Origin: Bacteroidota bacterium
GTDB taxonomy: Bacteria > Bacteroidota > Bacteroidia > 2-12-FULL-35-15
Length of the DNA stretch: 64,000 bases
Direction: 5' to 3'
Assembly: GCA_021323165.1 (NCBI GenBank)
Contig: JAJTCJ010000005.1
Span: 3,056 to 67,055, forward strand
Numbering within the stretch: the first letter of the stretch is position 1; each line of letters begins with the position of its first letter. Both the position numbers and the translations under genes were made by a program. The notes beneath the pieces were generated by a model. The model was given only the letters and a program-made list of their open reading frames with translations, did not search any database and was not told the origin of the DNA. Below are positions 6,814 through 64,000 of this stretch, in pieces.

Positions 6814-8286
6814 ATGAACTATACCAAAAATCTCTTTCTGAGGAAGAAATCAACGCTACTCAATAGTAAATTTTGTATATTTAATACAATGAGACTTTCG
6901 ACATTCATATTGTTTCTCTTTACTTTTCTGTTATTTAGCGGAAAGGCGCAAAAAGAAATTGCCCAATCAACCGAACAAGATGGATATGTTCAGGATTTTA
7001 ACATCCTTACTACGAGTATGCGTGAACTTTACCCTATGTTTTACACGGTTCAAGGGAAAGAGAAAGTCGAGCAAGCAATTAAAGAAACCTTTGTAAAACT
7101 TTCTACTGCAAAGACGAAACACGAAGCGTTGTATATAATTCAACGCTTTCTTTATGGGTTTTCAGACGTTCACGCTTCACTTATGATATATGGTGATCTC
7201 TTGGTCGAAAAAGCACTGCCTTTCAAAGTACAGATTATTAAGGATGAACTTTATATCAAAAATTTTCCGGCCAATCCGTTACTGAATGGAGCAAAAATTA
7301 ATGCAATTGATTCTCATAATACAAAAAATGTCATTGATAGTTTAAAAGTTCTATATCCAGTAGATGGAAATAATGTAATGGGTCTCGTCATCCAACCGTT
7401 ATTTAATTCCTTCTATGGGGCTTTCATTGAACAACGAGATTCCTTCTCTATTAATACAGATAAAGGGATAATAACAGTTCCATGTCTAAAAAGAAGTGAT
7501 CCGACATTCAACGACATTATCCGCAATTCTTGGATGAGCTATATGGTCACTGACAAAGATTGGATGAAAAAGGAAGTCACTGATCAATATGGGTACTTTA
7601 GACTTCTTAGTTTCGATAAAAAAGTAAATGGCTTTAAAATAGAGAATGAGTTCAATAGTCTTATTGCGGAACTTAATAAACGAAAAGTACCAAATTTGAT
7701 TATTGATTTAAGGTACAATTCCGGAGGCGATCCTTATATGGCAGGCAGAATAGCTTCCTTGCTCATAGATCAACCGATAAAAGTATTTGAAAAACTTATT
7801 GTTGTTAAACCAGAGGCTCCGAGTTTCAGCCAATATCTAAAAATTAAATATCCAGGTAGGACTAAAGGAGTTATTAAGGTTAGCGATCACTATGAAAAGG
7901 TTTCAGGAGATAAAGGACTTGTTGCAATCAACCCTTCAAAAGACCAGTATAAGGGAAAAATTTATGTTATTACAGGTGCTATGACGGAATCTACTTCTAC
8001 GATGTTATGTAAATATTTAAAAGGCAGAAAAGATGTAATTTTTGTGGGATCGGAAACACCGGGTGCAATTAATTATTTTTGCGCTCATAACCATTGTGAA
8101 GTTACCTTACCTAATATAGGCTTCATTGCAGGATTTGGCATGCAGCTTATAGAACTGGAAAATGGCTCAAGTGCAGATCAAAAGCCTCAAGGGGTAAAGC
8201 CTGATGTGGCCGTTGATTATAATATTGAAGAGGCTTTGTTGAAAAAGGACAAGGAAATGGAATGGATTCTTAATAAGCTAAAATGA
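6814..8286 (+). CDS. S41-family (C-terminal processing / tail-specific type) peptidase-like secreted protein
   Basis: Motifs IIDLRYNSGGDPYMA and VITGAMTESTSTML are typical of peptidase S41. A signal peptide (MRLSTFILFLFTFLLFSGKAQ) starts at the internal ATG at 6889, which is the more likely start. Confidence 0.7.
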   Translation: MNYTKNLFLRKKSTLLNSKFCIFNTMRLSTFILFLFTFLLFSGKAQKEIAQSTEQDGYVQDFNILTTSMRELYPMFYTVQGKEKVEQAIKETFVKLSTAKTKHEALYIIQRFLYGFSDVHASLMIYGDLLVEKALPFKVQIIKDELYIKNFPANPLLNGAKINAIDSHNTKNVIDSLKVLYPVDGNNVMGLVIQPLFNSFYGAFIEQRDSFSINTDKGIITVPCLKRSDPTFNDIIRNSWMSYMVTDKDWMKKEVTDQYGYFRLLSFDKKVNGFKIENEFNSLIAELNKRKVPNLIIDLRYNSGGDPYMAGRIASLLIDQPIKVFEKLIVVKPEAPSFSQYLKIKYPGRTKGVIKVSDHYEKVSGDKGLVAINPSKDQYKGKIYVITGAMTESTSTMLCKYLKGRKDVIFVGSETPGAINYFCAHNHCEVTLPNIGFIAGFGMQLIELENGSSADQKPQGVKPDVAVDYNIEEALLKKDKEMEWILNKLK

Positions 8287-8392
8287 AAGAAAGCAAAGCC
8301 CTTTTAAGTCGTTTGTTTGCAAAGGTGGCGTAACAGGCCAGATTGGAGAAATTCTCCTCATAGGTGGGCAATGGATCATGAGGATTCTAAGT

Positions 8393-8437
8393 CGCTGTAA
8401 ATCATCCAAAAAGTTCGATATTTGCAACCCGTAGGGT
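8393..8437 (+). repeat. Copy 1 of a 45-nt intergenic repeat (CGCTGTAAATCATCCAAAAAGTTCGATATTTGCAACC(C)GTAGGGT)
   Basis: Identical to 12011-12054 except for one extra C. It contains GATATTTG, one mismatch from the TAnnTTTG -7 box. A hairpin plus T7 (ccttgc tac gcaagg) follows near 8450-8475. Confidence 0.8.
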
Positions 8438-8532
8438 ACTCTTTTAAAGCCTTGCTACGCAAGGCTTTTTTTATTCCCTATATTATTATAAGTTCCCTAT
8501 ATCAACACTGTGGAAAGACAAAAGCTTCATTC

Positions 8533-9096
8533 CTACTGAAACCAATGACGAGGTCCAACCCGAAAGAAAGTGGCAAGAGTACAATCGCCTTCTATGACAC
8601 AAAGCAAACAACAATGAACCTTATTCTTTTTCAACTTCTTTGTCTTAACCTTTTTTTTCGTCAAGGACCCACTAACATCAAACACATTATTCAAAGACAA
8701 TAAATTCTGAATTTTAGTGGAATCGGAACCATTGTAAATTGTACGCTGTGAAATTTTTTGTGCTTTTCCGGCAGATTTAATGTTTAGTCTTCCTGACGGC
8801 AAATATTTGCGCATATCAGCCTGCAATTTTTTTATTCGTTTTTGTGTTAATTGCTCTGTTTCACTACTGTCACGGTAAATATCTAGGCTATATAAATCTT
8901 TTATATTAGCCGCGATATATTTAAAACACGAATCAACACTATAGGGCATTTCGGCATACTCGATGGAATTATGTTTAAAATAAATGTTGGGGTAGGTCAT
9001 CGTGAGACCAGCAACCTGTCCGCTGTTTCTTTGGCCATGAAGAGATAGTGTGCAAACAAGAAGGATCAATAGTGTTTTCACGGTTCTTAGCTGCAT
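8533..9096 (-). CDS. Hypothetical secreted protein
   Basis: N-terminal signal peptide (MQLRTVKTLLILLVCTLSLHGQ). No family recognised. The lysine-rich, odd C-terminal tail makes the true stop and extent uncertain. Confidence 0.5.
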   Translation of the reverse strand: MQLRTVKTLLILLVCTLSLHGQRNSGQVAGLTMTYPNIYFKHNSIEYAEMPYSVDSCFKYIAANIKDLYSLDIYRDSSETEQLTQKRIKKLQADMRKYLPSGRLNIKSAGKAQKISQRTIYNGSDSTKIQNLLSLNNVFDVSGSLTKKKVKTKKLKKNKVHCCLLCVIEGDCTLATFFRVGPRHWFQ

Positions 9097-9159
9097 GGTA
9101 ACATAAAGATACTACACCTATCCAAATAAATCTCTGTCCTTTTACTTATATTTACTCTT

Positions 9160-10659
9160 ATGAAAAGACTACTATCCTTTCTCATTTTATTGACATCACT
9201 GCTACTATTTCAATCGTGGGTAACTTCGATATCCAAAAAGCCTAAAAAAACGGATCCGGACACTTTAAGAACGAGTGATTTCTTTAAGAAATATTCTATA
9301 AGTGAACAACAGGAGGACTTAAAATTACTGAAGGAAGCGTTAGAAAAAATGCACCCGGATTTATATTGGCATGTAACAAAAGAAGACCTTGATAAGGAAT
9401 ACGCCACTCTTTTAAACGGTATTACCAGTGAAAAAACAGCTTATCAATACGCTTATTATATTAGAAGTTTGATTGCTAAAATTCGCTGTGGTCATACAGC
9501 AATTAGTTCGCCTCCATTTACAGATGAAATTAAAAAGAATAACCAACCCTGCCTGCCATTTAATGTAAAAGTAATTGATGATAAGCTTTACATTAAAGAC
9601 AACTTTACAGAAGACAGTTTATTTAACACTGGGGCGGAAATAATAAGTATCAATGGAGTAAAGTCAGTAGATCTGGTAAATGAATATCTACCAAAAGTGC
9701 ATAATGATGGTTTTAATCAGCAGGCCAAAATAGGTCGTGTTGAATTTTATTTTAAAATGTTGACTGAATTTAAATTTGATTTTCCTTCTTTCTATGTAAT
9801 GGAAGTCCTTACTGCCAGCGGCAATTATGCAAAAAGAAATGCAATGGGAATAAGTTTATCATTGATTGAAGCTAAATATGAGAAGAAATACCCGAATCAA
9901 GAAAATCCTTCACTTAAAATTATCGATTCATTAAAGACGGCAGTATTGACCTTCCCCACATTTGAAAATGAAACCTGGCGTACATTCTTAGACCCAAGCT
10001 TTAAAAAAATAAAAAAGAAAAAAATTGAAAACCTGATTATTGATTTGAGAAATAATTTAGGCGGTCGCGACCTATATAGTTCTAATTTATACGCCTATTT
10101 AGCAGCGGGACCATACAACTTTTATCATCACATTGAAATGCGGTTAGATAGTCTGGATGACCCCTTTTTAAAATACGGAGAATTAGACACCACAGAACTT
10201 GCACCTTTCGTTGGTAAGAATTATTTAAAGAAAATGCCTAACGGGAATTATATTGTAGACAAGAGCGCACATGCGATTACAGCTGAAGCGCCTTTAGCAC
10301 CTGACGGAGACTATAATTTCAAAGGTAAAGTTTTCATATTAATTAATGACGGAACATCATCGACAGCAGCCGCATTTTGTGCTATAAGTCAGTTTAATAA
10401 AAGAGCTACATTTATTGGGCAAGAGACAGGTGGCGGTAGTTGTGGAGATGCCGCAGGCATTTATTTTATTTTAAATTTGTCAAACACCAAAACCAAGGTT
10501 GTTATTCCTATAATGAGATTTTATAATTCGATGGATAATTGCCAAAGCCAGGGAGGGATAAAACCTGATTACGAGATCAAACCGGATTTGACCGACCTAA
10601 ATCCCACCATAGATCGTGAAATGAAAACTACATTAGATTTAATTAAAAAACAGCAATAG
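9160..10659 (+). CDS. S41-family peptidase-like secreted protein (paralog of 6814..8286)
   Basis: Signal peptide. Motifs IIDLRNNLGGRDLY and ILINDGTSSTAAAF. Same overall layout as the upstream paralog. Confidence 0.7.
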   Translation: MKRLLSFLILLTSLLLFQSWVTSISKKPKKTDPDTLRTSDFFKKYSISEQQEDLKLLKEALEKMHPDLYWHVTKEDLDKEYATLLNGITSEKTAYQYAYYIRSLIAKIRCGHTAISSPPFTDEIKKNNQPCLPFNVKVIDDKLYIKDNFTEDSLFNTGAEIISINGVKSVDLVNEYLPKVHNDGFNQQAKIGRVEFYFKMLTEFKFDFPSFYVMEVLTASGNYAKRNAMGISLSLIEAKYEKKYPNQENPSLKIIDSLKTAVLTFPTFENETWRTFLDPSFKKIKKKKIENLIIDLRNNLGGRDLYSSNLYAYLAAGPYNFYHHIEMRLDSLDDPFLKYGELDTTELAPFVGKNYLKKMPNGNYIVDKSAHAITAEAPLAPDGDYNFKGKVFILINDGTSSTAAAFCAISQFNKRATFIGQETGGGSCGDAAGIYFILNLSNTKTKVVIPIMRFYNSMDNCQSQGGIKPDYEIKPDLTDLNPTIDREMKTTLDLIKKQQ

Positions 10660-54806: not shown

Positions 54807-55937
54807 CTACTTCATAAACTTAAATTCTGTCCGTCTGTTAAGACGATGCTCTGCCTCAGAGCAATCTACATTATTCGAGCATCGATTTTTTAGTTGGGTT
54901 TCTCCAAATCCTTTTGATGTCAATCGTGACTTATCTACACCTTTTGAAATAAAGTAATCCATCACCTTTTGTGCTCTGTCTTGTGAAAGCTTCATATTAG
55001 AAGCATCATCTCCTCGTGCATCAGTGTGGCTATTGATAATCAATTTCAATGATTTATTGGTAGCCATTGAAGCTATTATTTTATCAAGTTTGGGAATAGA
55101 AGCTTCTTTAATTTCTGATGAGCCCGCACTATAATAAATATCCTGATCAACAATTAATTCGGCCTTAGATGAAGCAGCAAAATCTTTAATGGCCAATACA
55201 GGATCCACTTCGTTTTCTTTTGCTAAGGACACCAGTTCGGCAGGTAATAATTCATAAACGAATGAATTACCTGCTTTCTTGAATTGCTTAATAATAGTCC
55301 CATCCGTTTTTGCCATGTACAATTTAGCTCCCTTTAACAGCGAATTATATATCGCAACCTTTTCTTTGTACTCTTCCATTGCCGGTTTAAAATCCTTCTC
55401 CTCCAGCACGGGATACACCACCATGGAAACTTTCTTATCCTTTCTTTCCAGAATCATTTCATAATTTCCATTCTTAGGTCCGGGCACGATCTTCACTGAA
55501 TTCCACTGAATAGTGTAATATGATTTATCAAAATTTGTGTTTTCAGAACCTACATCGAAAATAGTTCCTTTGTATGTAGAAAGCTCAGGGAATTCAGCGG
55601 CAGAGAAGTCGATATTAAAACTGTGTTTAGCTGTATCATGCAACATTGGCTTAGTAAGGAGAAGTGAATCGACAGATATCTCCATCTTATAGGTTACGTT
55701 CACATCCAAGCCTTTAAATTCAAAATCACCATACTTATCTGTTGTGGCGTTGAAAGTTTTTGAACTTAAAGGATCTTTCAAAACTACTTTCTGGTTTTTC
55801 AGAGGCTGTTTCTTTTCTCCGTAAAGTAATTTCCGTGCATAATTAACCGGAGAGGATTTAACAGGAGTAATTTTTTTCTCCTGACCATACGATGACAATG
55901 AGAAAATGATTAATAATAAAATTGTTATTTTTTTCAT
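54807..55937 (-). CDS. OmpA-family protein (N-terminal carboxypeptidase-regulatory-like domain, C-terminal OmpA peptidoglycan-binding domain)
   Basis: C-terminal INSHTDARGDDASNMKLSQDRAQKVMDYFISKGV...NRRTEFKF. Signal peptide. Confidence 0.85.
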   Translation of the reverse strand: MKKITILLLIIFSLSSYGQEKKITPVKSSPVNYARKLLYGEKKQPLKNQKVVLKDPLSSKTFNATTDKYGDFEFKGLDVNVTYKMEISVDSLLLTKPMLHDTAKHSFNIDFSAAEFPELSTYKGTIFDVGSENTNFDKSYYTIQWNSVKIVPGPKNGNYEMILERKDKKVSMVVYPVLEEKDFKPAMEEYKEKVAIYNSLLKGAKLYMAKTDGTIIKQFKKAGNSFVYELLPAELVSLAKENEVDPVLAIKDFAASSKAELIVDQDIYYSAGSSEIKEASIPKLDKIIASMATNKSLKLIINSHTDARGDDASNMKLSQDRAQKVMDYFISKGVDKSRLTSKGFGETQLKNRCSNNVDCSEAEHRLNRRTEFKFMK

Positions 55938-55967
55938 GTATCTTATATTTAATAATAAATCAATTAT

Positions 55968-57467
55968 CTATTTCTTATTTAATGATTGTATAATAGCTCT
56001 GAAACTCTCCAAGCCCGCTTCCAAATTCTCTACAATATCATTTGCCAATACATCAGGATCAGGAAGGTTATCTAAATCCGCTAATGACTTATCCTTTAAC
56101 CAGGTAATATCCAATGATGTTTTATCTCTTGCAATGATCTCCTCATATTTAAACTTTCTCCAGCGACCTTCAGGATTTGTTTTCTCATTGTAGGTTTCCT
56201 TACGCTTGTTACGATTCTTTGGGTTGTAAAGCGTAATGAAATCCTTCAGATCTTCCAGCTTTAATGGATTCTTCTTTAATGTGTGGTGAATGTTGGTGCG
56301 GTAATCATATACCCAGACTTCCTTGGTCCATGGGTTTTTACTGGATGGCTTTCCATCAAAGAAAAGCACATTTGCTTTTACTCCATTGGCATAGAAAATA
56401 CCGGTAGGCAAACGAAGGATAGTATGCAGGTCCGTTGTTTCCAAAAGCTTCTTGCGGACAGTTTCACCAACCCCACCTTCAAACAAAACATTATCCGGTA
56501 ATACAACCGCTGCCATACCGGTTGACTTTAACATGGTGCGGATATGTTGCACAAAGTTCAATTGCTTGTTGCTGGTAGTTACCCAGAAATCCTGCCTGTT
56601 ATAAGTAAGGTCTTCTTTCTCCTGCTCTCCTTCTTCATTGGTGAAGGTCATGCTGCTCTTTTTACCGAAAGGCGGATTAGCAAGCACATAATCATAGCGG
56701 GTACCGGAATCTGTTATAAGGGAATCATTTGGAGAGATGAAATTATCTGAATCTATATCTCCAATGTTATGAAGGAATAAGTTCATTAAAGCCAAACGCC
56801 TGGTGCTGGCAACTATCTCATTTCCAAAGAAGGTTTCATATTTTAAGAATTTCTTGGCTTCTTTATCCAGATCCTGGTTTTCTGTGATCCAGTCATAAGC
56901 AGCTAAAAAGAAACCGCCTGTACCGCATGCAGGGTCTGCAATGGTTTTCATTGGTTCAGGGCGGATACATTCTACCATTGCTTTAATTAAAGGACGCGGA
57001 GTAAAGTATTGTCCTGCTCCACTCTTGGTATCTTCTGCATTCTTTTCTAAAAGGCCTTCATAAATATCCCCTTTATCTTTTACCCCCATTAAGATCCAGT
57101 TCTCTGCATTGATAAGCGCAATAAGCTTATATAATTTCGCGGGATCCTGAATTTCATTCCTGCTTTTTAAAAAGATCTGACCGAGAATTCCTTTTTCCTT
57201 AGCAAGCTCACGTAACATTTCATTATAATGGGTTTCAAGCTCTGAACCGCTTTTACCTAATAATGTTTCCCATGTATATTTTTTAGGGATTGGCATTTTA
57301 CGGTTATGCGGTGGCTTGCTGTATTCATCTGCCATTTTTAAAAACAGCAGATAAGTTAATTGCTGAAGGTATTCTCCGTAACCTACACCATCATCACGGA
57401 GTGTTTGGCAGAAAGCCCAGACTTTGCTTACTATACTGGAAGTGTTTGCTGAATTATTGTTGCTCAT
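55968..57467 (-). CDS. hsdM: Type I restriction-modification system, DNA methyltransferase subunit M
   Basis: HsdM N-terminal domain, motif I DPACGTGGFF, motif IV NPPFG (VLANPPFGKKS). Confidence 0.92.
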   Translation of the reverse strand: MSNNNSANTSSIVSKVWAFCQTLRDDGVGYGEYLQQLTYLLFLKMADEYSKPPHNRKMPIPKKYTWETLLGKSGSELETHYNEMLRELAKEKGILGQIFLKSRNEIQDPAKLYKLIALINAENWILMGVKDKGDIYEGLLEKNAEDTKSGAGQYFTPRPLIKAMVECIRPEPMKTIADPACGTGGFFLAAYDWITENQDLDKEAKKFLKYETFFGNEIVASTRRLALMNLFLHNIGDIDSDNFISPNDSLITDSGTRYDYVLANPPFGKKSSMTFTNEEGEQEKEDLTYNRQDFWVTTSNKQLNFVQHIRTMLKSTGMAAVVLPDNVLFEGGVGETVRKKLLETTDLHTILRLPTGIFYANGVKANVLFFDGKPSSKNPWTKEVWVYDYRTNIHHTLKKNPLKLEDLKDFITLYNPKNRNKRKETYNEKTNPEGRWRKFKYEEIIARDKTSLDITWLKDKSLADLDNLPDPDVLANDIVENLEAGLESFRAIIQSLNKK

Positions 57468-57469
57468 TT

Positions 57470-58087
57470 TTATTTAAATTTCAATATATTTAATATTCGC
57501 TCCCTAATCATTTGACGTTGTCGATAATTCGACAATTTATTTTCAAACATAACTTGCTTCGCCCTCGCAAGCGTATGAGCTTCGGAATCTAACTCAAATA
57601 AACTAATTGAATAGGTTGCTTCGTTTGTAACAGCTGAAATAAGAATTTTATATTTCCCTTTTGACCAATTATAATGATTTTGGGGATTATCATTATATGG
57701 ATGCACAATTTTAAAAATACAATTATCATAATTTGCAAGATCAACGTGCGATAAAACATCATCCTGCCCTTTTTTAGATGAACTATTGCAATATTGGCAT
57801 GCAATCGCTAAATTTTTGGGAGTAAAAATAAATGCTGTATAAGCAGGACGTTTAGGCCCCCCCTTTTTTGCAATGTGGTCTACTTCTGCTCTTCCACCTT
57901 CATTAACTTTTAAACCACAGTAGCAACAGTTGTTATTCTGAATAGCCAATAATTGATTATGAATTGCTGTTTTTATAACGGCCACGTCTTTTCTATCCCA
58001 AGCTCCAGGTCTCAAAGGCATAAGAGATTGTAGAAATAATTCTTGTGCTGGTAAAAGGCTATATGTGTTAGGTATTTGATTAATCAT
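57470..58087 (-). CDS. HNH-family endonuclease (PtuB-like, Septu-type partner)
   Basis: CCYCG...EVDHIAKKG...NLAIACQYCNSSSKKG gives a CxxC / DH / N / CxxC HNH layout. The start overlaps the upstream ATPase stop (ATGA at 58087-58084). Confidence 0.7.
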   Translation of the reverse strand: MINQIPNTYSLLPAQELFLQSLMPLRPGAWDRKDVAVIKTAIHNQLLAIQNNNCCYCGLKVNEGGRAEVDHIAKKGGPKRPAYTAFIFTPKNLAIACQYCNSSSKKGQDDVLSHVDLANYDNCIFKIVHPYNDNPQNHYNWSKGKYKILISAVTNEATYSISLFELDSEAHTLARAKQVMFENKLSNYRQRQMIRERILNILKFK

Positions 58088-59670
58088 ATTGTTTTAAGAT
58101 ATGCATTCGCTTCTTCAATAACTGCATTTAAAGGATCATTGGAAGAAATATCTATTGCTTTAATTGTTTCTAATAATTTTTCAATTTGAGTCTTTTCTTT
58201 AGAATTTTCTGAAATTAAACCTAACAAATCTGTTAAATCTGCTTCTAAATAATAATTTCTAACGGTTTTCAATTTAAAAACATTATAAAGAACTTCTTCT
58301 GCCGACCATCCAAAAGTATCCTGACCTTCTAGAAGCTTTGCTCCAAGCTGCCCATTTTCATTGTTTCTAGATAAAGCGGTTACTGAGGAACTATCTCCTT
58401 CTAAGTCAGAAACTAAAAAATGAGAATGAGTTGTAAGAATGAAATGACAGCTAGAAAATTTTGAAAACACTTTTTTTAAAAAAGAAACATACTTCATTTG
58501 CCAATTAGGATGCAAGCTAATTTCTGGTTCATCGATGAGTATTAAACTGTTATCCGAAATATTCGCAAACATTCCAATAAGTGAAATCAAAAGGTGATAT
58601 TCGCCTGAGCTTATTTCATTAATTGAAAGATTGGAAATACTTTTTTGAACTTTTATTCCATTAAGGTTAATAATATCTAGATTCTCTAAATGACCAATCA
58701 TTTTTAAATCATATGCTGAAATATTATTGGAAAAGAGGTCTATTGATAATATTTTAGAGGATGATTTTGCCTTATGTTGCAAATACCGGTTGTCAGCAGA
58801 GATTTTATTTAAATAAGCTACAAGTTCAACGGTTAAAGATTCGTTTTCCTTAAAATTATTATTATAATATGGTATGCTCCATAAAGGATTTTCCTTTTTA
58901 CGATTTGTGAAAGTAAATTTTTCATCCCACCATTCCTCAAAATATTTTTTAAAATCCTCTACTTTAAGTGTGTTTGCAAAAAACAACTTATTTATTTTTG
59001 TAGTATACTCAACTTTAAAGCTTTCTTCAAATCCTAAAAAAATCAATAATTCTTTTAGACTACCGTCAAAATCAATACTTTCATTGGAAGCATTAAATAA
59101 GTGTTTAATAGTTCTCTTTACAGATGATTTTGTACTTGTTGAGCTAGAAGTGCTTCTAGCACCAAGATATTGATAGAAATCATCAGGTTTTGTGTCTTTA
59201 TAAACAAACCTATCAGTATGTAAAATAGAATTAACTAAAACTTTTTCAGGGTATTCCAATTCATTGGATAATGATTCAAATCCCGTAATTATTTCAAAAC
59301 CTTTTGAGTCAAAGAATATTTTTTCTTCAGGTCTATTTTTATAAAAAAGGTATTCTCTTCTTTTGTTTTTATCAAGCACCTTCAATTTACGAGTAACGAT
59401 TTCATATGTATTATGATAATACTGATATCTTAAATGAATATCAAATGGAAGATTAAACTCTTTTTGATCAGTTCTAGAAAATTCTTTAAATTGTCTGAAA
59501 ATTTCAGCTATTGTACGCAAAATAAAACTCTTACCTGTTCCATTGGGACCAATTATTACAGAAGTGTAAGGCTTAATGACATTTTTAATTTCATTTGCTT
59601 CAGAAAGTAATAAGTCAATATCTCCAAGTTGTGGATGTCCTTTTAATTTAAGATATTCAATTCTAAACAT
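58084..59670 (-). CDS. ABC/SMC-like AAA ATPase (PtuA-like, Septu-type partner)
   Basis: Walker A GPNGTGKS, signature-like SSGEYHLL, Walker B LILIDEPEISLHP, H-loop TTHSHF, with a long helical insert between the lobes. Confidence 0.7.
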   Translation of the reverse strand: MFRIEYLKLKGHPQLGDIDLLLSEANEIKNVIKPYTSVIIGPNGTGKSFILRTIAEIFRQFKEFSRTDQKEFNLPFDIHLRYQYYHNTYEIVTRKLKVLDKNKRREYLFYKNRPEEKIFFDSKGFEIITGFESLSNELEYPEKVLVNSILHTDRFVYKDTKPDDFYQYLGARSTSSSTSTKSSVKRTIKHLFNASNESIDFDGSLKELLIFLGFEESFKVEYTTKINKLFFANTLKVEDFKKYFEEWWDEKFTFTNRKKENPLWSIPYYNNNFKENESLTVELVAYLNKISADNRYLQHKAKSSSKILSIDLFSNNISAYDLKMIGHLENLDIINLNGIKVQKSISNLSINEISSGEYHLLISLIGMFANISDNSLILIDEPEISLHPNWQMKYVSFLKKVFSKFSSCHFILTTHSHFLVSDLEGDSSSVTALSRNNENGQLGAKLLEGQDTFGWSAEEVLYNVFKLKTVRNYYLEADLTDLLGLISENSKEKTQIEKLLETIKAIDISSNDPLNAVIEEANAYLKTI

Positions 59671-59698
59671 TAGTATTTTTAATATTAAGTTTATATTT

Positions 59699-60889
59699 TT
59701 ATATTAGCTTCCCTTCAAACGCCTTTTTTAAAATACTCTGCCTTAAAGCTTCAGCTTGTTTTAAACTATCATTTATACTTTCTTCCATTTTATCTGCTAC
59801 ACTTAAACGATTCTCGATTTCTTGAACAATTAATTTTTGTTCTTCCATTTTTGGAAGCGGAATATTTACGTTAGAAACGTCAGTTTGATTAATACTAGCT
59901 TGGTTAACAGCTTGTTTTGCATTTTTCCTTAATTCTTTCAAACCCCTTTGAGAAGAAAGATAGATCGCAACATATTCTGGGAAAGCCATTTTTAAATCAA
60001 CTTTTACCTTCATAATATTACTCTCAAAAACAGTTCTCTCTTTTAAGTGTTTAACAATTCCACATTTTCCCAGATATGGCATACTATTCACTCTATTAAC
60101 TAAAATATCTCCTTCTACAATTTCATATTTTTCTATTTCCTCTTTTGTTAATCTAACTCTCTTGTACTCGTAATCTGATAAAATAGCTCCCTCATAAAAC
60201 CCATCGATTCTTATAATTGGAGTGCCACTACCATATTCAGTCGATGCTTTATACAATCCATTTTGAGGAGTAGTTGAGAAAATCTCACCGAAACGTAAAA
60301 ATTTCCATGTTTCTGGCAATTCCACATCCTTCACATTCTCATTCGTCAACTTGCCTTCAAAAGCCCATTTCAAAACAGCTTGCCTATAAACCTTTAATTG
60401 CTGCTGTGCTGTTTTTAAATTTTTTATTCCTATATCTAACTCAGAAAAAAGTTCTTCGATTTTGGAAACGATAGCTAATTGAAAATTATCTTCGGGAACT
60501 GAAATCTCATAATCTGTAAAGTTTCCCATTCGGATATAATTCGTTGCTGATCCAAATTGTTTATCCTGATTCCTTTTTCTCCAATTACCTAACAAATGAT
60601 AGTATAAATACTTAGGATATATATTTATTTTATTTAAAACATAGGTTCTTTGATAAGCATCAAAATCCCCATTATAGTAAAAAACTTCTCCGACATTAGC
60701 TCCATTGCCAGGCAATATTATACATTCACCACTGAAGCGTTTTGTTTCACAATACATATATTCAAATGCGCAAGTATAAAAACGATACTTACCATTGGGC
60801 TTTTCGTGATTTGCATCGTATTTGCCAGTTTGTATATTGCATACATCAGAAAGCTTTAACAGCTTGAATCTAGTGAGTATATTCTTCAT
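59699..60889 (-). CDS. hsdS: Type I restriction-modification system, specificity subunit S (two TRDs)
   Basis: Two target-recognition halves are each followed by the conserved helical spacer (LKVYRQAVLKWAFEGKL and LRQSILKKAFEGKLI). Confidence 0.9.
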   Translation of the reverse strand: MKNILTRFKLLKLSDVCNIQTGKYDANHEKPNGKYRFYTCAFEYMYCETKRFSGECIILPGNGANVGEVFYYNGDFDAYQRTYVLNKINIYPKYLYYHLLGNWRKRNQDKQFGSATNYIRMGNFTDYEISVPEDNFQLAIVSKIEELFSELDIGIKNLKTAQQQLKVYRQAVLKWAFEGKLTNENVKDVELPETWKFLRFGEIFSTTPQNGLYKASTEYGSGTPIIRIDGFYEGAILSDYEYKRVRLTKEEIEKYEIVEGDILVNRVNSMPYLGKCGIVKHLKERTVFESNIMKVKVDLKMAFPEYVAIYLSSQRGLKELRKNAKQAVNQASINQTDVSNVNIPLPKMEEQKLIVQEIENRLSVADKMEESINDSLKQAEALRQSILKKAFEGKLI

Positions 60890-60894
60890 TTACA

Positions 60895-62664
60895 TTATAA
60901 CTTGGAAATTATTTTAGAGAAACGATCAAAGGTTTCTGCACTTAATTCAACCTTTTCTTTGGAAATAAATAACATTTGAACCGCCTTATTAAATTTTGTT
61001 TTATCAAATTTAATAGCAGTTTTATCAAATTTCTTAGTGATAATAAGACGTTCCTCGTCAGTAAATAACAATTCGGTTGGGAAGTTAAATGTCGAATCAA
61101 TATCTTTAAGAGTAAAGATCTTATCTTTCAACAAAACGCCAAACTCTTCCAAATACCTCTCCTTAGCTCTAATCCCGTGATCATCTCCATCCAATAGAAC
61201 TTTAAATTTTCTATTCCAAGCTAAATACAAGGCTATAACATCTCTGTTCTTATCAGCACCCATACCAGGATAAAAATTTATTATTTTGTCGCCTCCAATT
61301 ATAATTTCATGCAAATATCTCAACGTGTAATAATCATATTTCCCTTCAGTAATTACAATATCAGGTACTTTTTCTAACAATCCTGGTTGATATTCTATAC
61401 TATCCAAAATGGGTTGAAAATAAGTTTGTTGCTCAGGATACTTTGCCGCGAATTGATTATACTGCATCGCTTCAACTTCGGTTTTTCTAGAATCAAAACT
61501 CATTTCATCATTATAATCAAGGTTTTTGTTTCTTATTATATATGCTCCTGATAACCAATCTGGATTAATTAGATGATGACTATGTGTTGTATAAATAAGC
61601 TTACACTTATCAGCCAGTTTCTCAAACGTTTTTAATAGATTTTTTTGAGCAGTTGAATGAAGATTTGATGCAGGTTCGTCTAGTAAAAAAAGAATTTCTC
61701 CATTATCAGAGGATCTCATTTTTCGAAATTCGGTAAAAAGCAAAAAGGTGAAGAACCATTTAAAACCTAAACTTCTTTCAGCAATCTGAAATTGTTGTGC
61801 ACCTTCTTTTAATCGCACTTCTAAATAATATTTCGTTGGATCGCCTTTCTCAACATTCGGTTTTAAAATAATTTCTTTTCCTTTAGACTCAAACAGGGTT
61901 TCCCAAGCTTGAAATACAGTTTTAGAAACTTTTTCACTCATTAAATTAATAGTAGAATCTAACGCTTCTCTGACATCTTCACTCTCTACTTTCATGCGTT
62001 CAATTAGGTGACTTTTAATATTATAATTACCTCCCAAAGAATCCAAAATATCACTTATAACCTCTCGATATGTTTCTTGCTCTTCAGTTTCATCTGGATA
62101 TTTTTCTAAGTAAATCTTTGAAGGAAAATCAAATAAGAAGTCTGGATAATAAATTATTGGAGGAATTAAATTATTTTGAATATAATCGGTGATTTTGGCC
62201 CACTCCTCTGATTTATGGTTTAAAGTACCTTTCCTAGAAGTTCCAACTACTGATCCTTTGATTGTAAGTGCCCAAGTACTACTCGATTCAGCTTTATCAT
62301 AGACAGAATTTTTAAAACACTTAATACGTTCGATTTCAATCTCTCCTATTGTGTCTGTGATTAAAAAATTTATCGTTTTAGCATATAATTTAATTAATTT
62401 TTCATCCTTAGCATTTAATTTTAAAATTGCCTTTACAGTAACATTATCATTAAAGTTCGACTTGTGATTTTTAGGTATTAATTTATGACTATCTGCTTCA
62501 TTGGTATCATTTTCAAATAAATCAATTGCTTCTAAAATTGAAGTTTTTCCACTCTCGTTTAATCCAACTAATGTTAGTATTTTTGATTTGGGCTCTTTTT
62601 CAAGATCAATTGTAATATTTTTAATCCCTTTATAATTCTGAATAATAAATTTTGAGTAATGCAT
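60895..62664 (-). CDS. Single-polypeptide ABC-type ATPase fused to a TOPRIM-like nuclease domain (OLD-family / fused PARIS-like / orphan GajA-like)
   Basis: Walker A GLNESGKTS, SLGFKWFFTFLLF signature-region motif, Walker B ILFLLDEPASNLH, H-loop YTTHSHH. The C-terminal IVITEGKYDYY (TOPRIM Glu) and LLDGDDHG (DxD) follow. Confidence 0.65.
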   Translation of the reverse strand: MHYSKFIIQNYKGIKNITIDLEKEPKSKILTLVGLNESGKTSILEAIDLFENDTNEADSHKLIPKNHKSNFNDNVTVKAILKLNAKDEKLIKLYAKTINFLITDTIGEIEIERIKCFKNSVYDKAESSSTWALTIKGSVVGTSRKGTLNHKSEEWAKITDYIQNNLIPPIIYYPDFLFDFPSKIYLEKYPDETEEQETYREVISDILDSLGGNYNIKSHLIERMKVESEDVREALDSTINLMSEKVSKTVFQAWETLFESKGKEIILKPNVEKGDPTKYYLEVRLKEGAQQFQIAERSLGFKWFFTFLLFTEFRKMRSSDNGEILFLLDEPASNLHSTAQKNLLKTFEKLADKCKLIYTTHSHHLINPDWLSGAYIIRNKNLDYNDEMSFDSRKTEVEAMQYNQFAAKYPEQQTYFQPILDSIEYQPGLLEKVPDIVITEGKYDYYTLRYLHEIIIGGDKIINFYPGMGADKNRDVIALYLAWNRKFKVLLDGDDHGIRAKERYLEEFGVLLKDKIFTLKDIDSTFNFPTELLFTDEERLIITKKFDKTAIKFDKTKFNKAVQMLFISKEKVELSAETFDRFSKIISKL

Positions 62665-62680
62665 AATTTAAATTTTTCAT

Positions 62681-64000
62681 TTACGCTGCTAACACTTCAT
62701 TTAACTCATTAATAATTTCATCTGTTTGTTCACCAAACAAAGACCAGATCTTGCTTAAACCACCATTTTTATTAAAAGGATCAAGATCAAAATCATCTTT
62801 CTCAAGGTGGAAGCTGCTGGCGATGTAATCCTTCATCATACGGAGCCATTGCATTTGTTCCTCGGAAAACTTTATAGTATTTCCTTGCTGCTTTTTCCAA
62901 ACCCAGTCAGCAAAATTTGTATCCACTGTTTTATCGTAAGATGTTAATGTACTGTCAATACCGCTTACTCTTCTTATCAGTGAAACCAAAGCTATCAGTT
63001 CATTCTTTGCTGAACCGTTTGTTTTCTCCAATTGTTCATAAGCCCGCCATACATTCATTGGAGCAAGTAAAGGCTTTTCAGTCTTTAACTTTTCGCAAAG
63101 GTCTTTGATCATTTTATAGGAGAACCCTCTTCTTCTATAGGGTTGCCCGTAAAAGATCTGCAAGGCTGTAATTTCATCCTTGTTGTTTTCAATCCAAGCC
63201 TTAAAATCAGTAATTGTATTTGTGGCGGAAGCAGCCTGGTCTTTTACCCAGCCTATTTTAGTTACTGTATCCATATTAACTACATCAATCACCTGGTCGT
63301 ACTTCTTGCGGATGTCAACAATAAAATCACGCAGTTCAGGATTATGAAATACTGCAACAGCATTTTCAATTAATTTAGCATGTTCTTTTTTTATTGCCGC
63401 TTCTTTCTCAACCGGTGCAGCCCCGGGCATAGAACTTTGAACCTGAAACTTTAAACCTTCTAAAGAATCAGGGTCATACGCATTCAACAATTGCTTTACA
63501 ATATGATTGATCGTAAATCCATTCGCCTGTTCAGAGAATCTTGTTTTGTCTTTTTCGGAGAGTTGCCTTTCCAAACGGATCAAACGGTTAGCAAGGGTAG
63601 TAAGCATATCCTCAGAAGTATTACCCATTGCAACATGCTGCAATACATCTTTCAATGAAACACCCGGAGCTTTTTCCAGGGGACGGCTGTCGGTTTTCTG
63701 TGAGCTTTCCACACCTATCGCATCAATGATCACAAAATGATCCTTGCTGAATTTAGCGGAAGGTGTTCCTTTGGCTTTTAATTCTTCCACAGAACATGTT
63801 CTCGTTCCGCGTCCTTTCATTTGCTCATAATAACTGCGGCTTTTAACATCACGCATAAAGAGCAATACTTCCAGCGGACGAATATCCGTTCCGGTTGCGA
63901 TCATGTCAACCGTTACTGCTATACGAGGATAATAATCATTACGGAATTGCTGAAGCACAGATTTTGGATCTTCTTCACTTCGGTAGGTGATCTTTTTGCA
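62681..64000 (-). CDS. hsdR: Type I restriction enzyme, R subunit, C-terminal part (gene continues beyond the right edge)
   Basis: The frame stays open from 63958 to 64000 (…CKKITYRSEEDPKSVLQQFRN). Helicase motifs VTVDMIATGTDI and QMKGRGTR. C-terminal HsdR helical domain. Confidence 0.9.
   Translation of the reverse strand, partial: CKKITYRSEEDPKSVLQQFRNDYYPRIAVTVDMIATGTDIRPLEVLLFMRDVKSRSYYEQMKGRGTRTCSVEELKAKGTPSAKFSKDHFVIIDAIGVESSQKTDSRPLEKAPGVSLKDVLQHVAMGNTSEDMLTTLANRLIRLERQLSEKDKTRFSEQANGFTINHIVKQLLNAYDPDSLEGLKFQVQSSMPGAAPVEKEAAIKKEHAKLIENAVAVFHNPELRDFIVDIRKKYDQVIDVVNMDTVTKIGWVKDQAASATNTITDFKAWIENNKDEITALQIFYGQPYRRRGFSYKMIKDLCEKLKTEKPLLAPMNVWRAYEQLEKTNGSAKNELIALVSLIRRVSGIDSTLTSYDKTVDTNFADWVWKKQQGNTIKFSEEQMQWLRMMKDYIASSFHLEKDDFDLDPFNKNGGLSKIWSLFGEQTDEIINELNEVLAA

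Follow-up and report, generated by a model that had tools for sequence, protein, structure and literature searches.

An OLD-like ATPase and a predicted Septu pair on either side of hsdS in a Bacteroidota Type I restriction-modification operon

We analyzed 64,000 nt of a Bacteroidota contig (JAJTCJ010000005.1, positions 3,056 to 67,055, GenBank assembly GCA_021323165.1; this whole stretch is called the window), in which a Type I restriction-modification (R-M) operon on the minus strand carries additional genes on both sides of hsdS. Six co-directional genes are involved (Table 1): hsdR, a gene for a 589-aa protein that we call X589, hsdS, two genes for proteins of 528 and 205 aa, and hsdM. We denote the hsdR|hsdS junction as slot 1 (1791 bp at this locus), the hsdS|hsdM junction as slot 2 (2231 bp), and their contents as cargo. 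The original prediction, made from the sequence alone, had described six genes packed almost without spacers, and every coordinate and gap that it gave was reproduced by the open reading frame (ORF) list and a read-out of the junctions. It had also held that inserts split hsdR, hsdS, and hsdM, which agrees with relatives of the same lineage whose slots are empty and whose hsd genes are contiguous. The source contig (L001 in our numbering of surveyed loci), 426 kb long and part of a Bacteroidetes metagenome-assembled genome from JGI sample 3300042904, supplies the complete hsdR beyond the window end.

Table 1 Genes, domains, and candidate recombination anchors of the operon (positions in the window)
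Feature	Position	Strand	Description
hsdR, 3' part	62681..64000	-	C-terminal 439 aa; stop at 62681; gene runs off the window
X589 gene (589 aa), slot 1 cargo	60895..62664	-	Single gene, ABC ATPase + Toprim-like domain; 16-nt gap after hsdR
X589 C-terminal Toprim-like domain	60898..61377	-	Approximately residues 430-589
hsdS	59699..60889	-	Specificity subunit, two target-recognition domains; 5-nt gap after the X589 gene
hsdS central conserved region	60315..60476	-	DNA homology resumes; candidate recombination anchor
hsdS C-terminal conserved region	59695..59865	-	Second internal candidate anchor
ptuA (528 aa), slot 2 cargo gene 1	58084..59670	-	Predicted Septu ABC ATPase; 28-nt gap after hsdS
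ptuB (205 aa), slot 2 cargo gene 2	57470..58087	-	Predicted Septu HNH nuclease; ATGA overlap (-4 nt) with ptuA
hsdM (499 aa)	55968..57467	-	Methyltransferase subunit; 2-nt gap after ptuB

Gene content and composition of the operon

Judged by their domains, the hsd genes are unambiguously a complete Type I R-M operon. The part of HsdR inside the window matches EcoEI_R_C (E = 6e-39) and Helicase_C in Pfam and the PADLOC model REase_I (E = 3e-15), and the complete gene (L001:1769-4594, 941 aa) encodes both the helicase/translocase core and the nuclease region, with HSDR_N, ResIII, DEAD, Helicase_C, and EcoEI_R_C present. HsdS, with its two target-recognition domains (TRDs), matches Methylase_S in two stretches (E = 1e-31) and the PADLOC model Specificity_I (E = 5e-59). 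HsdM is a predicted N6-adenine methyltransferase (N6_Mtase: E = 9e-68; HsdM_N: E = 6e-13; PADLOC MTase_I: E = 2e-196) with an NPPF motif in its translation. Identity to the subunits of relatives is 76-94% for HsdM, 62-84% for HsdR, and only 31-42% for HsdS. HsdM is unusually conserved relative to HsdR and HsdS of the same loci; hundreds of Bacteroidota proteins, many from Flavobacterium among them, share 90-94% identity with it.

The locus is compositionally mosaic, as had been suspected from spot counts of GC (guanine plus cytosine) content on single lines. Over whole genes, GC content is 29.8% in the X589 gene, 31.8% in hsdS, 27.9% in ptuA, and 33.2% in ptuB, vs. 39.4% in both hsdM and the hsdR part and 36.4% in the window, so that the inserts and hsdS lie 6-11 points under hsdR and hsdM. 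The contrast is stronger at the third codon position (18-25% in cargo and hsdS vs. 36-39% in hsdR and hsdM).

The 528-aa and 205-aa proteins are, by their profile matches, PtuA and PtuB of a Septu system. PtuA matches its PADLOC model (PDLC00265, E = 3e-102) over residues 1-526 of 528 and profile positions 1-476 of 479, has a Pfam AAA_15/AAA_21 match, and shows Walker A (GPNGTGKS) and Walker B (LILIDEPE) in its translation. PtuB matches PDLC00312 (E = 1.5e-31) and TIGR02646 "retron system putative HNH endonuclease" (E = 4e-11) and carries the pattern CxxC...DH...N...CxxC; its Pfam HNH match is weak and under the cut-off (E = 5e-4). Below threshold, the pair also matches the NCBIfam models of retron PtuA/PtuB and TIGR04435 "restriction system-associated AAA family ATPase". 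Against the sequences of the PDB, PtuA returned PtuA (8ee4) and AriA at E = 2e-9, and a sequence search of the solved structures with PtuB returned no match. The ATPase plus HNH reading of the original prediction thus holds, and the PADLOC and Pfam searches that it had proposed for the inserts give this pair the name Septu.

The original prediction had itself named a competing outcome, in which the inserted ATPases turn out to be housekeeping repair proteins of the RecF/RecN/SbcC kind that merely neighbor the hsd genes. Weak N-terminal P-loop matches to recF (E = 4e-7) and SMC_N (E = 1e-7) point that way, but their scores lie far under the cut-offs (29.5 vs. 172 bits for recF; 32 vs. 40 bits for SMC_N), PtuA and PtuB match defense models over their full length, and the genes occupy slots whose cargo varies, are missing in close relatives, and show a foreign GC content. 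This housekeeping reading is effectively refuted, and the inserts are best described, as first proposed, as defense-type ATPase-nuclease modules.

Because the six genes are closely spaced on one strand with no terminator-like sites between them, we infer that they are co-transcribed from upstream of hsdR. No minus-strand terminator-like site was found between genes, the sole minus-strand site lying inside hsdR, and the total number of such sites was close to expectation (6 vs. 4.7 expected). The Bacteroidetes -33/-7 promoter motif was matched once in L001 (1.5 expected), not near the operon. A sigma-70 promoter scan over-calls AT-rich DNA and is not meaningful for Bacteroidota.

Upstream of hsdR (L001:1-1769) lie two divergent ORFs of 247 and 97 aa without Pfam match, and the contig ends 1.77 kb from hsdR. 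At the other end, an OmpA-family gene begins 30 nt past the hsdM stop on the same strand (55937-55968) and may be read through from the operon. No integrase or tRNA gene was seen beside the locus.

The X589 protein and its family

X589 begins with an ABC ATPase domain of the AAA_15/AAA_21 type (Pfam AAA_15 across residues 1-366, E = 2e-26). In an alignment of 28 homologues, Walker A (G34, K40, T41), Walker B (D329, E330), and H361/H363 of the H-loop are invariant, as are E440, G441, and D492 further downstream; D494, which forms a DxD with D492, is nearly so. The C-terminal 189 aa had no Pfam or PADLOC match even at E <= 10, and the alignment of this part matched no Toprim, OLD, or DUF4435 profile. 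The full-length AlphaFold model (mean confidence score pLDDT 84) has its best PDB matches in the OLD protein of Thermus scotoductus (6p74, E = 5e-15) and GajA (E = 7e-14). With the model of the C-terminal domain (pLDDT 88), the top five PDB matches in Foldseek are all OLD Toprim regions (probability 0.82-0.99, weak E of 0.02-0.06, TM score 0.40-0.47), followed by DnaG and T7 primase, and the structural alignments of X589 with OLD proteins show only 10-15% identity. A match of the C-terminal profile to DarT among solved structures (E = 0.09) was dismissed as chance. We regard X589 as an OLD-like ABC ATPase-Toprim protein and thus a nuclease candidate, Toprim being assigned at the level of fold and conserved acidic residues only. 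Of the ATPase-TOPRIM label given to this protein in the original prediction, the ATPase half stands on profile matches, and the TOPRIM half is carried by the predicted structure and those residues.

The original prediction had also likened X589 to PARIS, which usually consists of two genes, typically on phage satellites. The protein could be a fused PARIS, with AriA and AriB joined in a single chain, and would then respond to DNA mimics like Ocr by cleaving tRNA. Its best PADLOC match is an AriA model (PDLC02979, residues 1-366, E = 1e-27), fused AriAB proteins exist in the literature, and the combination of ABC ATPase and Toprim is shared. The matching AriA model is, however, essentially a generic AAA_15 profile, with the same length and range, and the PtuA, AbiLi, GajA, and Old models of PADLOC match the X589 ATPase as well. 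The C-terminal domain has no AriB, AriAB, or DUF4435 match even at E <= 10; OLD Class 1/2 and GajA come first in the structure searches, which did not return AriB; and an exhaustive search with the C-terminal profile for a stand-alone AriB-like bridge to DUF4435 found none, the best 150 matches being nearly all the same ~600-aa fusion or fragments of it. We consider a fused PARIS very improbable and have given up the PARIS-type reading in favor of an OLD-like one.

The family is large and phylogenetically broad. A word-indexed search gave at least 3342 homologues of X589, 325 homologues occur in species-representative genomes, and the C-terminal profile gave 874 clusters at 50% identity, nearly all with the ~600-aa architecture. 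They are found in Bacteroidota, Patescibacteria, Cyanobacteria, Acidobacteria, Proteobacteria, and one archaeal metagenome-assembled genome (MAG). A tblastn search of phage and plasmid collections returned only distant ATPase-level matches (<= 28.5% identity), which gives no sign of the family being carried by known mobile elements. We found no description of the family, and its C-terminal domain is absent from Pfam and PADLOC-DB v2.0.0; at the sequence level it appears to be new.

We then considered the neighbors of X589 homologues at 80 species-representative loci. In 22 of the 80, the homologue lies co-directionally inside a Type I operon (M-S-X-R, M-X-S-R, or R-X-S-..-M), and at least 5 more adjoin Type III Mod/Res, giving at least 27/80 in or beside R-M genes; about two thirds lie away from them. 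The 292 neighbor genes hold no conserved partner gene of X589. Recurrent families among them are HsdS, HsdR, HsdM, DUF1016/YhcG, and Type III Mod, i.e., R-M genes are the only recurrent neighbors besides a small cluster of DUF1016/YhcG nucleases, which are also embedded in hsd loci. Adjacency to hsdS was dropped as an informative feature, hsdS being the middle gene that any single embedded gene adjoins. Three homologues follow Type III Mod/Res directly, with an overlap or a gap of 4-34 nt (L018:4739-11072, L062:4569-11809, and L056:7984-11806), and the association of the family with R-M is therefore not limited to Type I.

Several of these loci deserve individual mention. A DUF1016/YhcG PD-(D/E)xK nuclease gene between hsdM and hsdS is combined with an X589 homologue after hsdS at L005:7271-8809 and L006:1991-3580, so that cargo flanks hsdS on both sides in unrelated M-S-R operons too. 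A Woesearchaeota MAG (L026) has an X589 homologue in an M-AIPR-S-X-R operon, another double-nested Type I locus. The M-x-S-X-R locus of Flavobacterium covae (L016, CP067379, 3035265-3057015) is apparently decaying, with the X589 homologue in fragments of 503 and 71 aa, hsdS in 110 and 218 aa, and hsdR in 486, 173, and 325 aa. In the M-S-X-R operon at L077:7768-11167, the homologue is interrupted: between an N-terminal part of 211 aa and a C-terminal part of 387 aa lies an ORF of 507 aa that may be an insertion element. Homologues are also frequent in small-genome members of the candidate phyla radiation (Patescibacteria L009, L010, L017, L019, L021, L022, L024, L028-L031, L035, and others).

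Two cargo slots around hsdS

This operon belongs to a widespread Bacteroidota lineage with the native order hsdR-hsdS-hsdM, and every close HsdM relative inspected has the frame R-[slot 1]-S-[slot 2]-M with other cargo. A metagenome scan gave 80 further loci, and we counted 48 unique complete frames of the lineage (HsdM 76-94% identical). Both slots are filled in 27-28 of the 48 (56%), only slot 2 in 10, only slot 1 in 4-5, and neither in 6. ORFs of the relatives came from a simple greedy caller, and a distance-based recount that is independent of gene calling gave nearly the same numbers. In the empty relatives, hsdR and hsdS are 0-1 nt apart and hsdS and hsdM overlap by 4 nt; median slot sizes are 1598 bp (slot 1) and 1700 bp (slot 2), to which the present locus is close. 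The double nest is thus not unusual, since most complete frames of this hsd lineage have both junctions of hsdS occupied. The original prediction had taken the arrangement to be undescribed; embedding as such has been published (see below), and aligning the locus with related hsd loci, the check that it had suggested, showed the inserts to be absent or replaced by other cargo in close relatives.

What fills the slots is highly varied. Clustering of the 141 cargo proteins gave 86 clusters, and 62 of the proteins (~45%) are singletons that have no relative among the other cargo of the survey. The families are typical of defense as judged from their domains: ABC ATPases, Schlafen/AlbA_2, GmrSD, AbiEii, AbiC, AbiLi, Fic, PIN, HigB, Cap4 nuclease, Piwi, and PDC-M41, together with ImmA/IrrE with a helix-turn-helix and three IS200-type Y1 transposases (slots of L083-L167). 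Several of these are toxin-antitoxin genes (HigB, AbiEii, and Fic). For example, slots 1 and 2 hold two unknown genes and DUF2971 in L083, HATPase_c_3 and four genes including GmrSD in L084, and Schlafen/AlbA_2 and DUF559 plus Fic in L085-87. Nearly all cargo ORFs (141/143) are co-directional with the hsd genes.

Septu occupies slot 2 in 5-6 loci, with PtuA only 30-34% identical between loci whose HsdM are 80-83% identical, and independent captures of Septu therefore seem likely. One relative (L003) keeps the whole order, R | DUF3800, 214-aa gene, X591 | S | PtuA, PtuB | M, its X589 homologue being 67% identical. A 588-aa protein in slot 2 of L091 first co-clustered with X589 and was dropped from the family, since identity across the ATPase part is only 27%. 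Slot 1 of L112 (3094-6116) holds a Piwi-domain protein (664 aa, E = 3.5e-13) and a DpnII-MboI-domain protein, an apparent prokaryotic Argonaute system within a Type I operon; slot 2 of the same locus (7341-9618) holds a Septu-like pair, and slot 1 of L111 has the same Piwi and DpnII-MboI pair.

Such diversity is also what one would expect if the slots were a genomic sink, i.e., if the junctions simply tolerated insertions and the cargo were harmless hitch-hikers with linked transfer and no functional gain from co-location, an option discussed in a survey of embedded defense systems (Payne, Hughes, Fineran & Jackson, bioRxiv 10.1101/2024.01.29.577857; hereafter Payne et al. 2024). The IS200 transposases among the cargo, its low GC content of foreign origin, and the existence of empty frames are all consistent with this. 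However, 141/143 co-directional ORFs with minimal spacers suggest that insertion was not neutral and that read-through expression was selected for, the cargo is overwhelmingly of defense type, and TgvAB, a system embedded in a Type I operon of Vibrio cholerae, protects 10-100 times better in its full cluster. We therefore doubt that the cargo is merely hitch-hiking, while giving this explanation more credit than any other alternative considered here.

The boundaries of the slots coincide with breakpoints of homology. In blastn comparisons of the L001 locus with 8 relatives, DNA homology was found in four places only: hsdR up to its stop codon, two conserved regions of hsdS, and hsdM from its ATG. 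The central region of hsdS (L001 6799-6960) is 72-81% identical, and its C-terminal region (L001 7410-7580) is 69-81% identical in 7 of the 8; the slots and the TRDs share no DNA homology with those relatives. Shuffling of hsdS specificity by homologous recombination is already an accepted route. Homologous recombination in the hsdR, hsdS, and hsdM anchors would likewise exchange cargo between strains, and four anchors could swap slot 1 together with the first TRD, the second TRD alone, or slot 2, the same process shuffling the TRDs. Between closer relatives this route is plausible.

Interpretation and comparison with known systems

The explanation that we favor, and consider probable, is that three independent layers of defense share one operon and one transfer unit, the junctions flanking hsdS acting as cargo slots for accessory anti-phage genes. 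The Type I enzyme would cut unmethylated DNA by methylation-based restriction; Septu and the OLD-like X589 would be nucleases gated by ATP that respond to signs of infection by damaging tRNA or DNA. The ATPase of X589 would gate a metal-dependent Toprim nuclease, and by analogy the protein probably acts like OLD or HEC-04 proteins. Embedding would give linked transfer and shared expression, and it might, though it need not, also provide a back-up once restriction is inhibited. We base this on the identity of the genes, the intact catalytic motifs, the co-directional packing, the low GC content of the cargo, the varied cargo in the same frame, and the breakpoints at the slot boundaries.

Some points weigh against it. 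Toprim is called in X589 from a predicted structure with the weak Foldseek values given above and without sequence-profile support. Co-transcription is read from spacing, with a Bacteroidetes promoter scan that yielded one match where 1.5 were expected. Identity at the anchors is only 66-81% among the compared loci. Finally, greedy ORF calling in the relatives may have produced some spurious small cargo ORFs.

The original prediction had gone further and cast both inserts as guards, latent effectors that are held by the Type I complex or monitor it and that fire on anti-restriction proteins like Ocr, ArdA, or Stp. PrrC with EcoprrI and PARIS responding to Ocr are precedents, and the strong association of X589 with R-M, in Type I operons and beside Type III Mod/Res, is in line with the idea, as are the recurrence of Septu in slot 2 and its embedding in methylase-containing Hma; tight packing of the operon would match stoichiometry. 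But neither insert has homology to PrrC or AriB/DUF4435, and the slot is generic because at least 86 unrelated cargo clusters, including toxins, prokaryotic Argonaute, GmrSD, and transposases, pass through it. The divergence of PtuA relative to HsdM argues for independent captures instead of co-evolution with the complex, R-M genes do not adjoin about two thirds of the X589 homologues or most Septu systems, and TgvAB, though embedded, does not need HsdR in order to work. On balance, the comparisons speak against an obligate link of the inserts to the R-M complex, and we think the guard model unlikely; direct control by R-M is possible, particularly for X589 given its R-M association. An extension of the same idea would make the X589 family a new phylum-spanning class of R-M-linked guards, PrrC-like or PARIS-like and with an unrecognized Toprim variant, that sense failure of Type I or Type III restriction, with the R-S-M lineage as a dedicated two-slot carrier that swaps guards and hsdS specificity domains at its four anchors. 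We offer this as speculation that is improbable as it stands.

The locus opens no new category, because nested defense genes in R-M operons, possibly serving as back-ups, have already been published. It would be a clean natural example of three defense layers in one 10-kb operon, and the two-slot lineage is a convenient "bait" for new defense genes and for the study of joint swaps of cargo and specificity. The X589 family is large and uncharacterized, and it has no recurrent partners other than R-M genes of Type I and Type III and the hsd-embedded DUF1016/YhcG cluster; this qualifies it as a candidate anti-restriction sensor that is open to testing.

The Septu pair resembles known Septu systems in having an ABC ATPase and an overlapping downstream HNH gene, with full-length PADLOC matches and with Walker and HNH residues kept. 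It differs in that PtuA is very divergent from the solved Septu and retron PtuA, only a C-terminal stretch being alignable (E = 2e-9), and in that the pair sits inside an hsd operon and is not free-standing. Septu is known as an ATP-regulated complex of ATPase and HNH proteins, and one Septu system of E. coli cleaves tRNA-Tyr on infection, as does retron-Eco7 with its Septu-derived PtuAB.

Among Type I operons with an embedded second system, TgvAB in the VPI-2 operon of V. cholerae is active independently of the R-M enzyme, and DarTG2 in enteropathogenic E. coli is embedded between hsdS and hsdR at a site that has been called a potential recombination hotspot. Both resemble the present locus in carrying a second defense system inside the hsd operon and expressed with it, as studied experimentally there. 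Unlike it, they belong to M-S-R type operons with one occupied slot, next to hsdR, and with other cargo families.

PrrC, which occurs almost only as an embedded gene of Type I R-M loci (Payne et al. 2024), is the classical latent back-up effector, and PrrC-EcoprrI shares with our locus an ABC-type ATPase-nuclease gene inside a Type I hsd operon. The proteins are unrelated in sequence, the anticodon-nuclease domain and the masking by the R-M enzyme are features of PrrC, and no PrrC or RloC model was among the Pfam, NCBIfam, or PADLOC matches of either ATPase. PARIS shares the ABC ATPase and Toprim effector, and the ATPase region of X589 matches AriA models; X589 lacks an AriB/DUF4435 match and has no close homologues in phage or plasmid collections.

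OLD proteins of Class 1 (P2 Old, Thermus scotoductus OLD 6p74, and V. cholerae OLD) are the best structural matches of X589. Like them, X589 has an N-terminal ABC ATPase domain and is encoded by a single gene, without a UvrD-like helicase or a retron partner among the neighbors of its 80 homologues. To our knowledge, Class 1-like OLD proteins are still without a clear defense role in bacteria. The differences are that the C-terminus of X589 has no sequence match to any Toprim, OLD, or DUF4435 profile, and that at least a third of the X589 homologues lie in or beside R-M operons (22/80 in Type I and at least 5 beside Type III), whereas Class 1 OLD genes are described as not being near other defense genes (PMC10568477).

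HEC-04 is an ABC ATPase-TOPRIM fusion with experimentally shown defense, for which E319, D375, and D377 are needed (Payne et al. 2024). It is likewise a single-gene ABC ATPase-Toprim protein embedded in a methylase-containing defense system, and its three residues have equivalents with similar spacing in E440, D492, and D494 of X589. HEC-04 appears smaller and is not among the best PADLOC matches of X589; no PADLOC model matches the C-terminus of X589, so the two are different families at the sequence level.

The closest general precedent is the survey of Payne et al. (2024), who described defense systems embedded in Type I R-M, BREX, DISARM, and Hma loci, with Septu in methylase-containing Hma (0.7% of Septu systems are Hma-embedded), and who proposed a back-up rationale citing PrrC/Stp and PARIS/Ocr. 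In agreement with their definition of an embedded system, our locus has genes between those of a known multi-gene system and in the same orientation. The likeness extends to the frequency of co-orientation (96.7% there, 141/143 here) and to Septu and ABC ATPase-nuclease genes as cargo. Their survey does not single out the R-S-M lineage, the two slots flanking hsdS, or a double occupancy of 56%, of which we found no description elsewhere in the literature, and the C-terminus of X589 lies outside every model of PADLOC-DB v2.0.0, their candidates included. Embedding and the back-up hypothesis are thus already published, and the new part at this locus is the X589 family.

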